Assembly: GCA_947626145.1 (NCBI GenBank)
Contig: CANQRB010000004.1
Span: 29,250 to 93,249 of the forward strand
Source: an uncultured Clostridia bacterium
GTDB lineage: Bacteria; Bacillota; Clostridia; UMGS1883
Length of the DNA stretch: 64,000 nt
Reading direction: 5' to 3'
Below the pieces are notes generated by a model, which worked only from the letters and a program-made list of their open reading frames with translations, had not been told where the DNA came from and made no database searches. The position numbers and the translations under genes are program-made. Position 1 is the first letter of the stretch. Each line of letters begins with the position of its first letter. This document shows, one piece after another, positions 4,721-59,059 of this stretch.

Positions 4721-7700
4721 TTACAGCTCGGGAATGAAGTCGACTTCCGCACCAGCGGAATCAGCTTCGGTCTCGGCGATTTCGGTACTTACAAACTCAA
4801 TCTCAACACTGTCTAGGCTGAAGATCATAGCACCATCAACGCCTTCACAAGTAACATCATTGCCATTGATAGTTATCTTATAGAACAAGCCCTCAGTTTG
4901 AGTTGCTGTTTTATCTGTGCCGTTTACATCAACAATGGTAGATACCTTGAAGCCTATACCATTATCGTAAAGGGCTTTATCCAGTTCTATCGTTGTTCCT
5001 GCTTCACTGCTTGTAACTTTAATGAATTCTTTACGAACATCGTTAATAGCGTTCTTGTCATCAAGAACAACACCGCCGGTGCTGAGAATAGCAATGGCCT
5101 GTTCAAGCTTTTTTGCATCAAATTTTTCACGATTCAAAGTATCTTTGTAGTCGCTAAGGTTGGTTTTGATATCGTTAGCAAGCAACTCATAAAGAGATGC
5201 TTCAGCTTGAGCGATGAGATAACCGCTATTTGTGTCAACAAGCCTTGCCATATAGTAAATATTGCTTCCATTGTCTTTTTTCGGAATAACAAGTACAGAC
5301 GGAGCCCCGTTACTGAGGACAGAAGTGTCTATAGTCGTATTGTCTACTCCTTTACCGCCTTTTTCATTTGTTGTTTCGTGAAGATCAATAGCTGTAACCT
5401 TTAGCGTCTGTCCATCATAAGCACCATCGGCAGTAAAAGTTATGCCCAAAGTATCCGCACTGTCTCCATCAGCAGCAAAGCCAAGTCCAGCGGTGAGTGT
5501 AGCCGTCGCAGGAACGTCCACGCCACCTGCATATACGGCAAACTTGCTGATCTCAAGGTCTCCTTCACTTGAGGGATTGTTTCCAAAGAAGGAAACACCG
5601 TCAATTCCTCCATTGTTACGGAATGGTATGCCCATCAACATTTTACCTTCACCGGATGATTCATTCCGCACGGAAAGATTATATGTGTTATTTGTAACAT
5701 CAACATCTACGATAAAAGCATATGACTGATTAAGCTCCATTGTCATAAATTCTTTCTTGGCGGCGTTGTCTCTGTAGTAAATTTTGTCGCCACCGATAGG
5801 CAAATGAATACGAAGATTTGTGCCATACGCATCTGTCCCTTTTGCGTCGTACTTAAAAAATCCGATAGCGTTGTCGCCGTTTTGTTTGGCAACAAGAGTA
5901 AATGCGACGGTAAATTTGTCTGATATTTCTTTAGGGAAACGATACATTTCACTAAATGTCCTACCCTGATTGTTGATTACTGAGTTAGAACCAACGGTCA
6001 TGCCGGCTGTAGGATCAAATGTCTTTTCATGAGTCACAACATTTGCCGTCAAGGTAAGGCCTGTATCGGCGATAGTGCCGGTAGTATCCTCCCATGTTAC
6101 GGGCAATTCCTCGGCTGTCACTGCATCACTGTCAACAGTGGTCTTAATTGCGGTGGGAAGAACATAGTTATATCCTTCGAGAGTATTAATGTCAATGCTG
6201 TCGGGGCCGGTGATGGTGGCAGTTAACTCGGCCTCAACCTCAATTTCCTTAGTAGTGGTTGCGATAATAGTATCCTGATCAGACGCCTTATTGGTATAAT
6301 ATTTATCTGCTATGCGACGATTAGTAATAATCTTGCCATCACTGGCGGCACGGCCTTGATCAACGACCTGGTTTTCTGCAACTTTTACCGTTTCGCCTAC
6401 CTTGCCGGTCTGTTTCTCGATAGTGGCTACAGTTTGACCCTTGTATTTGGCATTTATGACGTAATCCACATCGTCGTTTTCAAGATTGCTAAGTTTGGTT
6501 ATTTTGAAGTTGTCGATGATGGGCTGAGTATCGTTACCGACCCAAGCGGTCTTAAAGCCCAGTTTTGTCTGCTTGGAACCGGTCCATACAATAAACTGCT
6601 TCGTCTCAAATTGATTGAGAGTGTGCAGGGTCATCTGCTGAAGCTTTTGGCTGGTATTGTCATTTTTGTCGGCATACCAATCAGCGCAGGGGTCGTCGGC
6701 CTCGCCGGTGCCATTGGCATCGGTTACGTAAAGCCACATATACTGATCCTTTGCCTGCTTGGTTGGCATGACGTCAAAGCTCACGAGATAACGGGTATTG
6801 GGGTCAACATTCCAAGTGCCGCCGAAAACAGTTCCGGCCGCACCGGCAACGCCCTTGAGCCAAAGAGCCTGGCTTCCTTCGGTCTTTTGGTTCTCACCCT
6901 TGACTATCTCATATTCTTCATTGGGTATATTAGTCCAACCATTAATACCATTTTCAAAGCCGTCGTTGGTGCCGGTAACAGTTCCCTCGACATTTTTTAC
7001 ATGTTTGGCGGTAATGTCGTAGTTGTTATTACCTTCACTCAAAGTGATCTCTTTGATTTCGGGGAGAGCAAGTTCATAAAGCTTTTCATTTTTAACAAGG
7101 TACTTGTTGCAACTGTTGAGAGAAAACTTATCTCCGGCAAAGTATTCCTTTTTATTTCCGTTTGGATTAGACTCCTCCAAAACATTTCCGCCGTCCATTA
7201 TGCGAACATTGACAGCAGCGTCGGGAGACAAAACCTTAACATCAGCAAGGTAAGCATCCTTAAGAGAAGCTACACCCCCAGTGGCATCTCCGCCGTGGAT
7301 ATTGGAGAGCAGAAAAGCGACCTTACCACCAACTATCTTATCGGCAGGAATACGGAGCTGAGACGTCACCTCAGTCCATGAATTAGATACATTTGATGTA
7401 CTCAGTGTTCCGACAAGAACTCTGCCCTCAACAGCAGTATCGAGCAGAGCGTTGTTCTCAGCTTCAACAGCTGCAGGGTCAACAGCAAAAATGGCAGCTT
7501 TAGATATACGGTCGTTAGCACCATTGTTAGACCATGCCTGAACCTTAAAGGTAGCCCGAAGAATTTGACCGGCAGCAACATTAGTGTCTTCTGGCAGTGT
7601 GAATTCAGCAAAACCCGCACGGTTATTTGAGAAAGACACTATGGCAGACTGAGCGTCTTGAACTTTGTATTCGTCAAATGTTTGCGGACGCTTAGCATCG

Positions 7701-33153: not shown

Positions 33154-33244
33154 TGGCGGAGAGAAAGGGATTCGAACCCTTGATCGGGGTTAACCGATAC
33201 ACGATTTCCAGTCGTGCGCCTTAGACCAGCTCAGCCATCTCTCC
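33154..33244 (-). tRNA. tRNA-Ser (anticodon GGA)
   Basis: Folded by hand. The acceptor stem is GGAGAGA/TCTCTCC. The anticodon arm is CACGA-CUGGAAA-UCGUG. A long variable arm (ATCGG...CCGAT) and a T-arm (AAGGG-TTCGAAT-CCCTT) are present. The discriminator is G and CCA is encoded. Confidence 0.93.
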
Positions 33245-53000: not shown

Positions 53001-53153
53001 AAAAATCCTTCCTTTTACTGTTCAACATTACACACAAAAAGCCCTGAATGGGCTTTTCGGAGCGGGGCCGCGCTCCCGTAACAGACGGCCGGCCCCGCCT
53101 CACATTATCCCCGCAGGAGCCTTGTAATTTTCAAATACTGACATATGACAAAT

Positions 53154-53423
53154 TTAACCCTTATTTTCTCCGTGTACATCCTCAAACGGTTTGGGGCAGT
53201 CAGGGTCAAGGTCACAACAGAACAGAAGAAATTCCGAAGAACTGGGTGAGTTTTCTTTTATAAACTCTATCATTTTTTGTGCCGTGCCAAGCCTTTTTGC
53301 GTCTATGCACGCACCTATTTCAAGGCCCTCATAACATCTCGGTATTGTCCTGACCCATTTTAACAGCTCCTGAAATTCTTCCCGCTCAAGCAGCGGGACT
53401 TTTTTCGTTTCTTTATTTTTCAT
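53154..53423 (-). CDS. Small Cys-containing hypothetical protein, paralogue B (89 aa)
   Basis: MKNKETKKVPLLEREEFQELLKWVRTIP... is a close paralogue of the adjacent gene. The true start is the internal ATG of the 129-aa track ORF. Confidence 0.65.
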   Translation of the reverse strand: MKNKETKKVPLLEREEFQELLKWVRTIPRCYEGLEIGACIDAKRLGTAQKMIEFIKENSPSSSEFLLFCCDLDPDCPKPFEDVHGENKG

Positions 53424-53676
53424 TTTGTATATCCTCGAACGGTTTGGGGCGTTTGGGGTCAAGGCCATAACAGAACAAAACGAGTTCTGAAGAGCTGGGG
53501 GAGTTTTCCTTGATGTAGTCAACGATTTCCTTCGTCTTGCCAAATTTTTTTGCTTCTATGCAAGTACCTATTTCAAGATCCACGTAACAGTCCGGTATCG
53601 TTCTGACCCACTTTAACAGCTCCTGAAATTCTTCCTGCTCAAGCAGCGGTATTTTTTTCGTTTCTTTATTTTTCAT
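53413..53676 (-). CDS. Small Cys-containing hypothetical protein, paralogue A (87 aa)
   Basis: MKNKETKKIPLLEQEEFQELLKWVRTIP... is the tandem duplicate of paralogue B and overlaps it by 11 nt. Confidence 0.65.
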   Translation of the reverse strand: MKNKETKKIPLLEQEEFQELLKWVRTIPDCYVDLEIGTCIEAKKFGKTKEIVDYIKENSPSSSELVLFCYGLDPKRPKPFEDIQNEK

Positions 53677-53730
53677 TATTTATCATCCATTCTTAAACAT
53701 TTTCAATGCGGCAAATCGGGCCTTACCGGC

Positions 53731-55209
53731 CTATTCCGTAACGGGCTCATACCTGTCCGCCGGGCAAAGAGGTTCGAGTTTGTCCATCATCCAGACCATG
53801 TGAGTCACCGGATCAAGGGACATATAATCCTTCGTGGTGACCGAGCTGCGCGGGGCAAGGGTTACGGCGGAGGTTTTCTGATTATACTGAACGCCGTTAT
53901 TGCTCGCCGCCCATATATCCGTCACGGTATAGCTGTCAAAGCCGCTGTTGGTTATGGTCGCGGATGCGGTGAAGCTGTCGCTGTCAAAGCTTATGCCGCT
54001 GACGGTTATTTTCCTGCCCAGAAGGGTATCCATCATCCTGCCGACGTCCACGATGCCGAAGCCGTAAAAGGTGTCCCAGCCGGGAGCCCCCATATCACGG
54101 GACGTGGCCTGAATAAGGGAGCGGAACCGGTTCACGTCCGCCTCGGGCTCGATCTGCTTGACAAGAGCCGCCACGGAGGCTATGTATGGCGAGGAAAACG
54201 ACGTGCCGCTGTTTTGCCCGAAGCCCATATTCGACAGGTCTTTGAAATTGAGGACGGAGACGCTTCCGCCGCAGGCGGCCACATCCACCTGACTGTTATG
54301 GTACGAAAAGCTGGAATAGTTGCCGTTGCTGTCCACCGAGGCCACGCTTATCACGTTGTTAAAAGCGCCGGGGTACATAAAGGGGCTGTCCTTATTCAGA
54401 TCGTTTTTGTTGTTGGTCGTACTGTCGTGATTGCCCGCGGCGGCCACCACTATGATGCCCCTGTTGGCGGCGTTGTCAATAATTTCCTTCATGGACTTTA
54501 TGGCGGCGGCATTGTTGGCGTCTTCCTTCGCGCCAACACTCATATTTATAACGTCGCAGCCCTGCCTTACGGCGTAGTCCAAGCCGAGGATGAGGTTGCT
54601 GACGGCGGTGGTGTTTGAGTTGCCGGGGAAGGCCTTTATCACCACGAGATCAACGCCGTCGGCCAGGCTGGAAAGTCCCCTGCTGTTGTTGGTCGCGGCG
54701 CATATCATCCCGGCCACAGAGGTGCCGTGGCCCTGATAATCGGTGACATCCTCCGCCTTGGGGTCAGTCTCCTTGACGGTCACATCCCGCCGTCCGACGA
54801 CCTTGGCGTAGTTGATATCCGGATGGCCGTTGGCGATGCCCGTATCAATGATACCCACCTTGACGCCGGAGCCGTTATACGTTCCGTTGTTAACCACGCC
54901 GATAGCGTTTGTGAGCCGGAACTCATAGCTCCGCTGGCGCTCGTAGCCCGTGTCGTCGGCGGCATCCATGAGCTCCACCGAGGCGTCGGGGCCGTAATAT
55001 TCAATTATGCCCGCCTCATACAGGCGCTGAAGCTCCTCAAGGTCGTCGCTGAGATAGATGGCCCCGCTTAGGTGGTTCTGCTCCATCTCAAGGCTCATTG
55101 GCATAACAAGGCCGTCCCTGTACCGGAATATGTAGTCCTGGGCATACGCGGCAGAGCAGAACAGCAGCGCCATCAGCCCGGTCAGAAAAAAACTTTTGAC
55201 AAATTTCAT
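53731..55209 (-). CDS. Secreted S8 (subtilisin-like) serine peptidase
   Basis: Signal peptide. The catalytic triad contexts are VGIIDTGI (Asp), HGTSVAGMI (His) and SGTSFSSPYIASVAAL (Ser). Confidence 0.9.
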   Translation of the reverse strand: MKFVKSFFLTGLMALLFCSAAYAQDYIFRYRDGLVMPMSLEMEQNHLSGAIYLSDDLEELQRLYEAGIIEYYGPDASVELMDAADDTGYERQRSYEFRLTNAIGVVNNGTYNGSGVKVGIIDTGIANGHPDINYAKVVGRRDVTVKETDPKAEDVTDYQGHGTSVAGMICAATNNSRGLSSLADGVDLVVIKAFPGNSNTTAVSNLILGLDYAVRQGCDVINMSVGAKEDANNAAAIKSMKEIIDNAANRGIIVVAAAGNHDSTTNNKNDLNKDSPFMYPGAFNNVISVASVDSNGNYSSFSYHNSQVDVAACGGSVSVLNFKDLSNMGFGQNSGTSFSSPYIASVAALVKQIEPEADVNRFRSLIQATSRDMGAPGWDTFYGFGIVDVGRMMDTLLGRKITVSGISFDSDSFTASATITNSGFDSYTVTDIWAASNNGVQYNQKTSAVTLAPRSSVTTKDYMSLDPVTHMVWMMDKLEPLCPADRYEPVTE

Positions 55210-55370
55210 AGCTTTATCCCCTGAAATCAACAATCAATAATATTACATTTTCTATTGTACAATAAAAAAGGAAATTTGTCAAATGAATTTTTTGTTATTT
55301 TTATTTTAAACTAATCCCAAATTAAAATCATAAATATGTGAGTTCATTATGGTAACAATGACAGATTAAA

Positions 55371-55526
55371 AAGGCTTCCCCTCGAGGGGAAGCTGTCAGC
55401 GACAGCTGACTGATGAGGTGTAGCCGCTGTGCGGCGTTAGCATAGCCGTAAACGTATAACGGATGCTTCGCATCCTACACCTCATCCGGCACTTCGTGCC
55501 ACCTTCCCCTCAAAGGGGAAGGCTTT
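55371..55526. repeat. About 156-bp multi-hairpin palindromic element
   Basis: A 12-bp long-range stem GATGAGGTGTAG (55412-55423) pairs with CTACACCTCATC (55485-55496). Local hairpins are nested and flanking: CTTCCCCT-cg-AGGGGAAG, GTCAGC-gaca-GCTGAC, GCCGC-tgt-GCGGC, GGATGC-ttc-GCATCC, GGCAC-ttc-GTGCC and CTTCCCCT-caa-AGGGGAAG. Confidence 0.85.
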
Positions 55527-55708
55527 ATTATCTGCTATATTTAATACTACTTTCTAATTAAAATCATCAATTCACGGCAGTCTTTTTGGTCTCTTCCTTG
55601 TCTGACACGAAAAATCCTCGCCACTCGGTGTCTGCTTTTAATAGATTAGTATTAAATAAATAAGGGGACAGGCTTTCAGATCAAACCGAAAACCCGTCCC
55701 CGCTCCGC

Positions 55709-56059
55709 TCACCTTCCGCTCAGCCCGAAGCTGACGGATATGGCGTCGTTGACCTTTACCATCTGCAATTCATCCAAACGGCCTATCTTTTCACGAAGGC
55801 GCTTTTTATCTATGGTCCGTATCTGCTCCAGAAGGACGACGCTGTCCTTTTGGAGGCCGTACTGGGCCGCCTCTATCTCAATGTGCGTGGGGAGCTTGGC
55901 CTTGTTGATGCGGCTGGTTATGGCGGCGGCTATGACCGTGGGGCTGTACTTGTTGCCCACGTCGTTCTGCACCACCAGCACCGGCCTGACGCCGCCCTGC
56001 TCTGAACCCACCACCGGACTAAGATCCGCGTAAAAAATGTCGCCTCGCTTGACAATCAC
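55709..56059 (-). CDS. mazF: MazF/PemK-family endoribonuclease toxin (EndoA-like)
   Basis: [36 protein letters not shown]. It lies downstream of alr, as in Bacillus ndoAI-ndoA. Confidence 0.93.
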
Positions 56060-56065
56060 TAAACT

Positions 56066-56341
56066 TCACTCTCCGATAAAATTTTCGTAGGCGTACAACG
56101 CGATTTCATCAGTTGGAAGGGCTTCATTAGCGATTTTCAGATTTATCTCGGCCATCTCGAGATACCCCGACCGCATAAGGGACTTAAGCTCCAGCCGCCG
56201 CTTTTCCCTCAGGTAAGAGCGGACGATCTGGACGATAAAGTCGCTGCGGCTGTTGCGTCCGGGACCGGCGAGAAGGTCTATCTCGGACAGCATGGAATCG
56301 GGTATACTCAGTGAGATCTCCTTTTCACAGCGCTGTGGCAT
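56066..56341 (-). CDS. Ribbon-helix-helix antitoxin (MazE/EndoAI-like)
   Basis: 91 aa, with RSDFIVQIVRSYL resembling CopG/RHH. It lies immediately upstream of mazF. Confidence 0.8.
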   Translation of the reverse strand: MPQRCEKEISLSIPDSMLSEIDLLAGPGRNSRSDFIVQIVRSYLREKRRLELKSLMRSGYLEMAEINLKIANEALPTDEIALYAYENFIGE

Positions 56342-56443: not shown

Positions 56444-57580
56444 CTATATGTAAATTCGGGGAACGCGCTTTCCGACGGTACAGATGACCTCATAGTTTAT
56501 TGTGCCCATAATTTCCGCAAGCTCTTCCACCGGCACGGTCTGTCCTCCGTCGCTGCCGAACAGAACCACACTGTCGCCTACAGAAATATTTTGGACATTT
56601 CTCAGGTCAATCATACATTGATCCATACAAATTCTGCCCAGGACGGCCTTTTTTTCTCCGCCGACAATGACCCGGGCTCTGCCGCTGAGGGCGCGGGAGT
56701 AGCCGTCGGCGTAGCCGGCGCTGACCGTGCCGATTTTCATATCCTCGGGAGTGGTGTAAGCTCCGCCGTAGCTGACGAGGCTGCCCTCTGGCACGGTCTT
56801 TATTTCGGAAATGCGGGCCCTCATGCTCATGACGGGCCTCAGCGGCAGGCGGCTCCTGTCCACCTCATCCGAGGGATACAGGCCGTAAAGCACTATCCCC
56901 GCCCGCACCATGTCAAGGTGCATCTCCGGAGCGTTCATTATGGCCGCGCTGTTGCAGCAGTGCCGAACCTTTATATGCACTCCGGCGGCCTCTATCCTGT
57001 CCAGACAGTCCATGAAGCGCCGGAACTGCAGCTTTTGATACGTGTTGTCCCGCTCGTCCGCCTTGGAAAAATGGGTGAAGGCTCCCTCCACCTCTATGCC
57101 GGGCAGATCGGCTATTTCCCTGACCCTGGCGGCAAGCTCCGGATCGGAATAGTACAGGCCCAGCCGGTTCATGCCGGTGTCCAGCTTGATATGCACCTTC
57201 ACGCTCTTATCCTGTGCGGCGGCCTCACGGCTCAGCACCCGGGCAAGGGCGAGGTCAAATACCGCCGGTATCACATCCAGCCGCACAATGTCGGCGGCGT
57301 TTTCCTCGTCGGCCCCGCTGAGCATGTGTATCGGGGTCTCGGGGAAGCGCGCCCGCAGCTGAGCGGCCTCGTCCACGGTGGCCACCGCAAGCCGGTCGGC
57401 CCCGTTTTTAAGCAGCACCTTTGACACCTCAACCGCGCCGTGGCCGTAGCCGTCGGCCTTGACCACGCCCATGACCATGGCCCGGGGGTCGGTTATGCTC
57501 CGCACGTTCCTCATATTTTCGGCAAGGGCGCCCAAATCTATCTCAGTCCAGACTCTTCCGTGACCGCTCACTGTTATCAA
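56444..57580 (-). CDS. alr: Alanine racemase
   Basis: PLP-lysine context VVKADGYGHG and the expected length. The start is TTG 57580 or GTG 57571. Confidence 0.93.
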   Translation of the reverse strand: MITVSGHGRVWTEIDLGALAENMRNVRSITDPRAMVMGVVKADGYGHGAVEVSKVLLKNGADRLAVATVDEAAQLRARFPETPIHMLSGADEENAADIVRLDVIPAVFDLALARVLSREAAAQDKSVKVHIKLDTGMNRLGLYYSDPELAARVREIADLPGIEVEGAFTHFSKADERDNTYQKLQFRRFMDCLDRIEAAGVHIKVRHCCNSAAIMNAPEMHLDMVRAGIVLYGLYPSDEVDRSRLPLRPVMSMRARISEIKTVPEGSLVSYGGAYTTPEDMKIGTVSAGYADGYSRALSGRARVIVGGEKKAVLGRICMDQCMIDLRNVQNISVGDSVVLFGSDGGQTVPVEELAEIMGTINYEVICTVGKRVPRIYI

Positions 57581-59045
57581 CCTCCATAAATGCGTATTTA
57601 AGATTATCTATGATGTCGTCGGCGGTGACGGAATACGCACCGATGCTTTTCTCGCAGAACATTCCGCTCCGTCCGTGGAGCCAGACCGCGAGAACAGCCG
57701 CCCGGTCAGCCGGTATGCCCTGGGCGCAGAGGGAGCCTACAAGCCCCGCCAGAATGTCGCCGCTGCCGCCCCGTGCCAGAGCCGAGGTGGCCGACAGCGA
57801 GACCCAGGCCTCCCCATCGGGCCGGGCGACAACCGTCCTCGCCCCCTTCAGCAGCACCGTGACGCCGTATTCGGAGGCAAAGCTCCGGGCGGCGCCCAGC
57901 CGGTCGGCCTCTATATCCTCAACACTATGCCCCGTAAGGCGGGAAAATTCCATTGGGTGGGGCGTTATCAGCACTTTCCCTCCGCGCAGAAGCTCCGGAC
58001 GCCCCTTCAGTGCGTTGAGGGCGTCGGCGTCCAGTATCACCGGCCCGCCGGCGGCCTTTATCACACCGGAAATAAAGCCCGGCGCCAGGGTACCGCCGCT
58101 GCCGCAGCCCATTACCGCGGCGGAGGCCGACCTCACGGCCTTTTCCAGCCTTTCGTCGCTAAAATCGTATTTTTTCACCGGCAGCGCCACGGCCTGGGGG
58201 GCCATGAGGTTCATAAAATTCTCCGTTCCGTCGGGGCAGGCCGCCGTCACCAGTCCGCAGCCGCCGCGGAGCGCGGCCCGTGCCGCCATGGACGCGGCTC
58301 CCATCATGCCGTGACTGCCTGTGACCAGCAGCAGACGCCCGAAGGTTCCCTTGTGGGAAAACCGGGGACGCCGCGGGAGTATCTCCGCAGCAAGGCCGGG
58401 AGTTATGGGTATGGGCTGCTCCGCCGGAACCTCGCCCCAGTCCACCGGTATGCCGGCGTCACGGACAACCGTTTCGCCGCAGGGCTCCACGCTTTCACTG
58501 TTTAAAAATCCGGTCTTCGGCGCCGTAAAGGTGACGGTCTTATCCGCCATGACGCAGACCCCGCAGGGCCGTCCGCCGTCGGCGTCCAGTCCGCTGGGTA
58601 TATCCGCCGACAGGACGTAAGCGTCCATGGAATTTATGTAGTCGATGGCCTCCCGTGCCGGGCCGACCACCCCTCCCCTGATGCCGATGCCGAAAATGGC
58701 GTCAACGACAGCGTCACAGATGGGCTTTTCCATATTTTTGTCAAATGACTTTATGGCAATGCCGGCTCTGCGGCACTCCTCCGCCAGCGTCCTGCACTCC
58801 GGAGTGAAGGGCTCGGCCACGCTGACGACGCCCACTCTTTTTCCCATGTCCGCCAACAGCTTCGCCGTCCTGTAGCCGTCGGCGCCGTTGTTGCCCTTGC
58901 CGCAAAAAACGCAAACCGCGTCAAAGAGCCTCAGCTCCCTGACGCAGGCGCGGGCGGCGTTGTCTATGAGCTCAAGGGAGGCCTCGGGGCCGGTTATGAC
59001 CCGGCTCTCGAAATCCCTTATCTGACCTGAAGTCAAAAAACGCAT
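57543..59045 (-). CDS. nnr: Bifunctional NAD(P)H-hydrate repair enzyme (epimerase/dehydratase)
   Basis: An N-terminal YjeF_N domain (CGKGNNGADG) and a C-terminal carbohydrate-kinase domain (GGSGDILAG). ATG 59045 lies 6 nt after AAGGTG. Confidence 0.9.
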   Translation of the reverse strand: MRFLTSGQIRDFESRVITGPEASLELIDNAARACVRELRLFDAVCVFCGKGNNGADGYRTAKLLADMGKRVGVVSVAEPFTPECRTLAEECRRAGIAIKSFDKNMEKPICDAVVDAIFGIGIRGGVVGPAREAIDYINSMDAYVLSADIPSGLDADGGRPCGVCVMADKTVTFTAPKTGFLNSESVEPCGETVVRDAGIPVDWGEVPAEQPIPITPGLAAEILPRRPRFSHKGTFGRLLLVTGSHGMMGAASMAARAALRGGCGLVTAACPDGTENFMNLMAPQAVALPVKKYDFSDERLEKAVRSASAAVMGCGSGGTLAPGFISGVIKAAGGPVILDADALNALKGRPELLRGGKVLITPHPMEFSRLTGHSVEDIEADRLGAARSFASEYGVTVLLKGARTVVARPDGEAWVSLSATSALARGGSGDILAGLVGSLCAQGIPADRAAVLAVWLHGRSGMFCEKSIGAYSVTADDIIDNLKYAFMEVDNSERSRKSLD

Positions 59046-59059
59046 AACAAACACCTTAT

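Follow-up and report, generated by a model that had tools for sequence, protein, structure and literature searches.

The 64,000-nucleotide (nt) stretch of an uncultured Clostridia bacterium analysed here (the window; contig CANQRB010000004.1, positions 29,250 to 93,249) contains a block of densely nested hairpins at positions 55371-55526, between mazF and the gene for an S8 peptidase. In a sequence-only reading of the window this block was taken to be possibly a repeat of the repetitive extragenic palindrome (REP) kind or of the MITE kind (miniature transposable elements with inverted repeats), a complex terminator of the alr-mazEF operon or a structured RNA, and its nature is the subject of this analysis. 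The genes around it all lie on the minus strand:

57543-59054, minus strand: NAD(P)HX epimerase/dehydratase
56444-57580, minus strand: alanine racemase (alr)
56066-56341, minus strand: RHH antitoxin
55709-56059, minus strand: MazF/PemK (mazF)
53731-55233, minus strand: open reading frame (ORF) of the S8 peptidase, with an ATG start at 55209

The spacer between mazF and the S8 peptidase gene is AT-rich and measures 500 nt in the window. It holds a terminator-like site belonging to mazF itself (55701-55664, a 16-pair hairpin followed by a TTATTTATTT tail) and a near-consensus promoter-like site of the S8 peptidase gene (TTGACA-17-TACAAT, 55282-55254), and the hairpin block is located between the two.

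Enumeration of perfect hairpins in the block (stem of at least 5, loop of 3-11) returned seven, with two overlapping alternatives among them, leaving the six non-overlapping ones that the sequence-only reading had counted. One thousand shuffles of the block yielded 1.1 perfect hairpins on average and 6 at most, and none reached seven. The 12-bp long-range stem (stem P hereafter, GATGAGGTGTAG at 55412-55423 with CTACACCTCATC at 55475-55486) pairs perfectly, as had been noticed; it encloses only the central hairpins, not the whole element as had been thought. The outermost hairpins, HL on the left and HR on the right, do read identically, CTTCCCCT...AGGGGAAG. The plus strand folds with a predicted minimum free energy (MFE) of -89.5 kcal/mol, where shuffles give -50.4 +/- 4.1 (z = -9.5); for the minus strand z is -8.0. 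Both BLAST and the family covariance model R1 described below, run with its filters off, found one copy of the hairpin core in the 64-kb window, in agreement with the single copy seen by eye. The core and its parts are as follows:

55368-55528, plus strand: core, one copy of a five-hairpin palindromic repeat family of Oscillospiraceae (R1 score, family alignment A3)
55374-55393, plus strand: HL, left outer hairpin, GCTTCCCC-TCGA-GGGGAAGC, 8 bp (local pairing backed by compensatory changes in the family)
55395-55410, plus strand: hp1, GTCAGC-GACA-GCTGAC, 6 bp (alternative at 55391-55407, 7 bp)
55412-55423, plus strand: 5' arm of stem P, GATGAGGTGTAG (the stem extension covaries across the family)
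55424-55474, no strand assigned: central variable segment, present in either orientation in family members, with small hairpins of its own at 55423-55435 (5 bp) and 55461-55475 (6 bp)
55475-55486, plus strand: 3' arm of stem P, CTACACCTCATC
55488-55500, plus strand: hp2, GGCAC-TTC-GTGCC, 5 bp
55502-55522, plus strand: HR, right outer hairpin, CCTTCCCCT-CAA-AGGGGAAGG, 9 bp

We compared the locus among contigs chosen as encoding exactly the MazF protein of the window. A filled allele, with the 500-nt spacer, occurs in the window, in L001 and L005 and in the partial contigs L008 and L010; an empty allele, with a spacer of 153-163 nt, occurs in L009 and in the L002-L007 group (L005 itself being counted as filled). 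Alignment of the two alleles revealed a single clean difference of 346 bp at TTATTT[TTA]AATAAA, corresponding to 343 bp plus a 3-bp duplication; the rest of the locus, with the terminator of mazF and the promoter of the S8 peptidase gene, is conserved in both. The empty site reads TTTATT-TTA-AATAAATAAGG on the plus strand and the filled site TTTATT-TTA-[AACTAATCCC ... AGATTAGTA]-TTA-AATAAATAAGG. The 343-bp segment is an insertion in one sub-lineage and not a deletion elsewhere, given two sets of empty contigs: L009, with flanks 98.4-98.5% identical to those of the window, and the outgroup-like L002-L007, of which L002, a GTDB species representative and a rabbit-gut metagenome-assembled genome (MAG), is 85-88% identical to the window. 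Positions 55371-55526 cover the core alone; the mobile unit is larger and spans 55309-55651. TTA stands on both sides of this unit; microhomology at the junction (TTAAA) makes the duplication readable as anything from 2 to 5 bp, from TA to TTAAA, with TA included. The parts of the insertion outside the core are:

55306-55308, no strand: left copy of the target duplication, TTA (filled/empty alignment)
55309-55651, no strand: whole inserted element, 343 bp, probable non-autonomous IS630-type element (MITE), delimited by the filled/empty comparison
55309-55327, plus strand: left terminal inverted repeat (TIR) AACTAATCCCAAATTAAAA, matching at 18/19 bases the TIR of ~1.1-kb IS630-like metagenome elements and the ends of L105 and L067
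55328-55370, no strand: left arm of the MITE, AT-rich, its inner part CAGATTAAAAAGG mirroring the right side of the core (inverted repeat I1)
55529-55633, no strand: right arm of the MITE, within which the left TIR recurs at 55545-55563 (repeat D1)
55634-55651, minus strand: right TIR, which on that strand reads TACTAATCTATTAAAAGC (inverted repeat I3)
55652-55654, no strand: right copy of the target duplication, TTA (filled/empty alignment)

The S8 peptidase promoter is left intact by the insertion, the boundary of which falls ~26 bp upstream of the -35 box, and terminator-like hairpins are thereby added upstream of that gene. Within the left arm of the MITE, a weak promoter-like site on the minus strand (TTACCA-17-TATGAT, 9/12, 55355-55327) faces the S8 peptidase gene and, judged by its sequence, could add transcription into it in strains with the insertion. 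Contig L008 has an end that aligns to window position 55501, in the core, and the short contig L010 ends at 55593, in the right arm, which fits a repeat that breaks assemblies.

The 343-bp unit contains no ORF of 40 amino acids (aa) or more. Its ends are inverted repeats, (T/A)ACTAATCCCAAATTAAAA, the same as those bounding insertion sequences (IS) of ~1.1 kb in metagenomes. A scan of metagenome contigs with the terminal repeat TACTAAYCYCAAWTTAAAA returned three classes: probable chance matches, pairs of inverted ends 100-350 bp apart, and pairs 1107-1179 bp apart. The elements of 100-350 bp are MITEs, none of which contains the hairpin core; core-less derivatives of 100-190 bp with the same termini are numerous in the same data (for example L167, L200 and L224). 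The full-length elements (1.11-1.18 kb) are found in L226 (4055-5178), L201 (97-1231), L203, L237, L261 and L278. Their TACTAATCCCAAATTAAAA ends correspond to the window ends AACTAATCCCAAATTAAAA and TACTAATCTATTAAAAGC, with termini of 19 nt; the L226-type element ends in TACTAATCCC, and all ends in this IS630-like set read A-TA-CTAATC, as expected for insertion at TA. The two overlapping ORFs of the 1.1-kb elements match winged-helix HTH_33/HTH_29 and DDE_3 (E = 1.8e-23), and an HTH and a DDE_3 domain in two overlapping frames are, as predicted from these matches, the IS630/Tc1-mariner arrangement. Two sister copies of the window element, L105 and L067, were found in a related rabbit-gut MAG, CANRJP01, and share AT-rich arms with it: they are 86-89% identical to the left arm of the window over 58-63 nt, and elsewhere only the TIR matches. 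They end in TACTAAYC...GRTTAGTA, flanked by TAA/TAA and TTA/TTA, with TA at both ends. The right arm in the window has ~105 bp that are not in L105, including the second copy of the left end at 55545-55563. The same MAG contains a core-only match, L040, truncated by the end of the locus.

The core is far more widespread than the shell that carries it in the window. A sensitive BLAST search of phage records with the insertion matched the core alone, in 15 unverified 'Bacteriophage sp.' contigs from human faeces. Alignment of five of these copies disclosed conserved motifs between covarying hairpins, from which the search pattern GACTGATGAGG-N35-65-CCTCATCCGGC was derived. It matched 11 IMG/VR contigs and at least 117 loci in GTDB species representatives. 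The scan being biased by the pattern, all copy numbers are minimum values, and GACTGATGAGG and CCTCATCCGGC (GATGAGG / CCTCATC), invariant because the pattern demands them, are no evidence of conservation. The great majority of hosts are Oscillospiraceae (Gemmiger, Faecalibacterium, Faecousia, Anaerofilum, Flavonifractor and numerous MAGs), together with some MAGs of Acutalibacteraceae and Lachnospiraceae and a few bins labelled as other phyla, where contamination is possible; some of the viral contigs with a core are real phages with terminase and capsid genes. The covariance model R1, built on 96 distinct copies, scored the window copy at 122.5 bits on the plus strand and 80.6 bits on the minus strand, its only match in the window. 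The empty contig L002 gave no match, while 267 kb of sequence from Gemmiger and related loci gave about 50; Gemmiger formicilis carries dozens of copies. The GGGGAAG-type palindromes that the sequence-only reading attributed to other Clostridia are borne out by a real repeat family. This family is absent from Rfam 15: no match in the window reached the gathering score, only chance-level hits appeared at E <= 10 in 55150-55750, and there was no match at ~30 core copies in 124 kb of related loci, so that the proposed cmscan check gave nothing above chance. The plasmid collection contained only a chance 44-nt match to the element, and no description of the core family was found in the literature searched by topic or by sequence string. 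A survey of conserved MITEs ties many viral sequences to Gemmiger via shared MITEs without describing the elements. While MITEs and palindromic extragenic repeats are well known, and a MITE derived from IS630 is ordinary, the core family is the part absent from Rfam 15.

Family members have a common layout of five helices joined by 1-nt linkers: HL, hp1, the long stem P around a variable centre, hp2 and HR. The left half of the consensus reads (AAA)G-GCTTCCCC-loop-GGGGAAGC-T-GTCnnn-GAA-nnnGAC-T-GATGAGG, then 35-65 nt, and the right half CCTCATC-C-GGCnn-TTC-nnGCC-A-CCTTCCCC-loop-GGGGAAGG-C(TTT); the conserved motifs are GGCTTCCCC, GAAGCTGTC, GACTGATGAGG, CCTCATCCGGC and CCACCTTCCCC. In this structure 93.5% of cells are paired, versus 42-58% when the partners are slid, and double-change cells number 237, versus 77.5 in shuffles, a value as high in 0 of 500 of them. 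The extension of stem P covaries as well (GC 62 and UA 26 at columns 88/168). A long-range pairing of HL with HR, given by MFE and RNAalifold, was rejected: where HL and HR differ, local pairing is kept at 14 positions and cross pairing at 0. A hammerhead ribozyme was another candidate, given that the left arm has GUC, a hairpin and then CUGAUGAG. It was discarded, as GAUGAGG pairs with CCUCAUC throughout the 96 aligned copies (the search pattern imposes this), the second stem is followed by UCAUCC and not GAAA, and no hammerhead model matches even at E <= 10.

The way in which the stems vary bears on the level at which they are constrained. hp1 occurs as 64 distinct sequences in 95 copies (571 Watson-Crick, 6 G-T and 2 A-C pairs) and hp2 as 51 in 95 (454 Watson-Crick, 2 G-T and 0 A-C pairs), that is, 1025 Watson-Crick pairs versus 8 G-T for both. 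In HL and HR the mismatches T-G (20) and C-A (12) are about equally frequent, and therefore neither strand is favoured; in the extension of stem P, G-T (92) and A-C (72) are again about equal. The right arm mirrors the left, with TTC loops for GAA loops and GGC...GCC for GTC...GAC, so that the arms are near mirror images, and R1 scores on the opposite strand are just 35-45 bits lower. With few wobbles, mismatches at parity, mirrored arms and a small score gap between the strands, the core is most likely constrained as DNA, or on both strands alike, and not as the RNA of one strand. Non-orthologous copies are at most 88% and at the median 71% identical, with hairpins nearly perfect; the sample holds no near-identical non-orthologous paralogues (maximum 88%) that would define exact termini.

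The centre of the core behaves differently from its arms. With copies oriented by their asymmetric arms, similar pairs of central segments are direct in 52 cases and inverted in 43. The centre of the window copy is collinear with that of L105 (44 vs 9) and inverted relative to that of L067 (29 vs 7), and the orientation of the shell is the same in all three. From these comparisons, the ~50-bp segment between the arms of stem P has been inverted during the history of the family. DNA palindromes are expected to behave in this way, whereas such behaviour sits poorly with a sequence-specific RNA. Core copies also have no fixed orientation relative to genes, a gene context taken from crude ORF calls, in which 50/106 copies 'overlap' long ORFs, probably artefacts of the G+C-rich genomes.

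Copies without a shell, or naked cores, allowed the sites themselves to be compared. Two such copies in G. formicilis ATCC 27749 (L104) follow bioY at a distance of 46 nt and uppS at 5 nt, and both are upstream of the terminator hairpin of the respective gene. On contigs found via RuvX homologues, both sites are filled in the closest relatives, L144 and L145, and both are empty in L148-L155, L280 and L281 (RuvX 84-93% identical); the uppS site is also empty in L156 (RuvX 83%). Judged from these alleles, naked core copies come and go; the flanks of filled and empty Gemmiger sites are too diverged for exact junctions. A search for empty sites among the fetched loci by paired flank matches recovered filled orthologues only. 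Over 107 copies, conservation ends at AAAG / CTTT; the left flank is A-rich and the right one T-rich. Near the two copies of G. formicilis ATCC 27749 lies a 6S RNA gene (L104 7151-7344, 70.2 bits). In one Gemmiger-like lineage (L156-L159) a fragment of an IS200-type tnpA takes the place of bioY upstream of ruvX. This Y1_Tnp lead (1035-1302) was dropped as a partner of the core, being a truncated AT-rich gene of 88 aa with unrelated ends and no model match.

Two further repeats touch the core. A second G+C-rich repeat of ~63 bp, AGTCTACGCGCTAAGAGCCGCCTTCGGCGGTTGCGCTCCGACACGCGCCTGCGGGCGCAGT, sits inside HL or HR of Gemmiger core copies, always at the CTTC-CCCC junction (L138 5730-5792, minus strand; also L041, L116, L117, L018, L111 and L133), and this placement suggests that it may target the outer hairpin. 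In L085 (Oscillospiraceae MAG SIG504) core copies at 835-986, 5729-5881 and 7207-7358 stand in a different AT-rich shell with inverted ends TAAATTATYGTTTA, which suggests that MITEs of more than one kind have captured the core or received it by insertion. By analogy with the bacterial interspersed mosaic elements (BIMEs) of enterobacteria, the core repeats can be regarded as a mosaic of small nested repeats.

We consider it probable that the 343-bp unit is a MITE derived from an IS630-family IS, with the hairpin cluster as its passenger; the core is a copy of a large and old palindrome family present mainly in Oscillospiraceae and their phages. The suggestion of a REP/MITE-like repeat is right on two levels, as a TIR-bounded, strain-polymorphic insertion and as a copy of a large palindromic repeat family. 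The MITE entered the AT-rich DNA that separates the mazF terminator from the S8 peptidase promoter in only one sub-lineage of this Clostridia species of rabbit or herbivore guts, and it would have been moved in trans by an IS630-type DDE transposase recognising (TA)CTAATCCCAAATTAAAA ends, presumably by cut-and-paste. In that lineage the core would spread by hitch-hiking in the IS630-type shell, and in other genomes the naked core would be spread or maintained by a mechanism that reads the shape of the hairpins and not their sequence. Several observations weigh against this interpretation. IS630 elements insert at TA and are expected to leave a plain TA target duplication; the overlap at the window junction is TTA (up to TTAAA), the left terminus is AACTAATC instead of TACTAATC, and the empty site as observed does not follow from a plain TA duplication with canonical termini. 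A tblastn search with the transposase detected no IS630-type transposase gene, either in the window or in any contig fetched for this species. As for the core, no target-site duplication showed around naked copies, where no offset and no length from 2 to 8 rose above shuffles. All-versus-all clustering of ORFs in ~1 Mb of flanks revealed no recurrent gene beside the copies, the top clusters being translations of the repeat or generic ABC ATPases, and no autonomous version, in which a gene would lie between a left and a right arm spaced 0.5-3 kb, was found. Finally, the hairpins are intact despite the drift of the paralogues, which would not be so for passively decaying selfish DNA and implies, as far as the alignments tell, continuing selection on structure. 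Such selection could act at the level of the element (a structure-dependent replicator, as in REPINs or integron attC sites) or of the host (roles of RNA that depend on structure only, such as 3'-end protection).

What the core does, if anything, divides the alternatives. A complex intrinsic terminator of the alr-mazEF operon would agree with its position downstream of mazF and with G+C-rich hairpins followed by T-runs; it is almost certainly not the explanation, as the separate, conserved terminator at 55701-55664 is present in all alleles and is all that related strains have, the block being missing where MazF is identical. The structured RNA of the sequence-only reading fares no better as a dedicated RNA gene, for there is no Rfam match, almost no G-U, no fixed orientation and a centre found both ways; the block may still be transcribed within mRNAs. 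In its most explicit form this would be a free-standing small RNA (sRNA) gene of ~150 nt on the minus strand, with a promoter-like TAGAAA-18-GATAAT at 55556-55527 and with HL and a T-run as terminator: the weak promoter-like site (9/12) is directly upstream, a terminator-like hairpin with CTTTTT stands at the far end of that strand, and the fold is very stable. We judge it very improbable, as the promoter-like site belongs to the MITE arm of this lineage and other family members lack it, Rfam has no match, copies occur in both orientations with the centre flipped, and the element is dispensable in sister strains. Somewhat more room, still in the range of the unlikely, is left for an orientation-independent RNA module in the untranslated regions (UTRs) of mRNAs, selected by the host as a 3' exonuclease barrier or a bidirectional terminator/attenuator. 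HL fits a terminator-like pattern on one strand and HR on the other; A predominates in the left flank and T in the right one, with a strong fold on either strand; and the Gemmiger copies, 5-46 nt past stop codons and before the terminators of the genes, would be transcribed. Set against this are the scarcity of G-U (8 in ~1060 stem pairs) and the 92 G-T versus 72 A-C of the stem P extension, the position of the window element after the mazF terminator and not before it, and related strains and species that lack the core at the same loci.

A second set of explanations places the selected shape in DNA. It is possible, and we put it forward tentatively, that the core is a folded-DNA or structure-only RNA substrate of an enzyme or host factor conserved across Oscillospiraceae, a clostridial counterpart of REP/RAYT or attC/integrase systems, its shape being selected and its centre turned round through recombination, or through a template switch, at the 7-12-bp inverted arms; this fits because pairing is near perfect at a median identity of 71%, target duplications are lacking and the core was captured in different AT-rich TIR shells (in the window lineage and in L085). 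Equally tentative is the notion that the core is the folded single-stranded DNA substrate of a structure-specific enzyme (a REP/RAYT-like HUH transposase, a TnpA of the IS200/IS605 type, or an attC/integrase-like recombinase) by which it is copied or maintained, the family then being a Firmicutes analogue of REPINs and no passive passenger. Stem sequences that vary freely while pairing stays near perfect and almost without wobble, nearly identical hairpins at both ends without target duplication, and paralogues that are old (at most 88% identical) with their structure intact all speak for such a substrate, as do copies placed between stop codons and native terminators, where REPs also lie. The loop of hp1 is mostly C-GAA-G, with hp2 as its mirror on the other strand, and C-GAA-G, of the GNA type, is a very stable DNA mini-hairpin motif. 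On the other side of the ledger, the ~1 Mb of flanks contains no Y1/HUH or other recurrent gene, the sole Y1_Tnp fragment (L156-L159) has unrelated ends and no model match, the arms are mirror images of each other, while HUH enzymes read a single strand at either end, and the GTAG motif that is the hallmark of REPs is absent.

Comparison with known systems places the shell and the core in different company. The RUP element of Streptococcus pneumoniae is a MITE of the IS630 family, thought to be moved by IS630-Spn1. Like such MITEs, the window unit is short, AT-rich and without transposase, has TIRs in common with full-length IS encoding HTH and DDE_3 and TA at both ends, and belongs to a kind with several copies per genome and strain-polymorphic insertions. 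Unlike them, it carries a 156-bp G+C-rich nested palindrome that is not in other MITEs with the same ends, and its junction is TTA/TTAAA. The core resembles REPs, BIMEs and REPINs as a dispersed, extragenic G+C-rich palindrome with tens of copies per genome, a structure kept while the sequence drifts, no target duplication, copies just past stop codons and small repeats nested inside. It differs from these proteobacterial elements in its hosts, which are Clostridia, and in its build (~150 bp, five hairpins and a variable centre versus a 20-40-bp palindrome or simple doublet); it has no GTAG-type head, and no RAYT/Y1 gene was found nearby, in ~1 Mb of flanks. BOX of S. pneumoniae and ERIC/IRU of Enterobacteria are likewise long or modular imperfect palindromes of 100-200 bp, intergenic and with a stable predicted fold on either strand, but without sequence similarity to the core, which is nearly all Watson-Crick, with mirror arms and a flipping centre. 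Integron attC sites are imperfect palindromes of similar length with short end motifs, a highly variable centre and structure favoured over sequence; in contrast to them, core copies have mixed orientations and spacing (L085, L104) and form no cassette arrays, there is no integrase nearby, and by eye there are no R''/R' GTTRRRY motifs. Palindrome-associated elements derived from IS200/IS605 (PATE) have subterminal hairpins at both ends, neither TIRs nor a duplication, and are moved by a Y1 TnpA. The core has similar hairpins at its two ends and no duplication, but its arms form inverted repeats with mirror symmetry, and a TnpA gene did not turn up nearby.

In annotation, neither a mazEF terminator nor an sRNA should be entered for the hairpin block; it marks a strain-variable transposon insertion. 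More broadly, a strongly structured repeat is present in many copies in Gemmiger, Faecalibacterium and other abundant gut Oscillospiraceae and in phages, where it breaks metagenome assemblies (for example L008), confounds predictions of RNA motifs and terminators, and can link phages to hosts. By analogy with REPs, core repeats may shape the ends of mRNAs, their G+C-rich hairpins and A/T runs perhaps acting incidentally as transcript ends or stabilisers where the core is transcribed. If it is true that a dedicated enzyme maintains the core, this would be a new repeat/enzyme system in Firmicutes.

Elsewhere in the window, one tRNA gene lies at 33157-33244 on the minus strand. Downstream of the S8 peptidase gene, an AT-rich segment of ~685 bp (53058-53741) is replaced by ~20 bp in the related contigs L002 and L003; its ORFs (53413-53676, 87 aa; 53154-53543, 129 aa) have no Pfam match, and it represents a second indel between the lineages.

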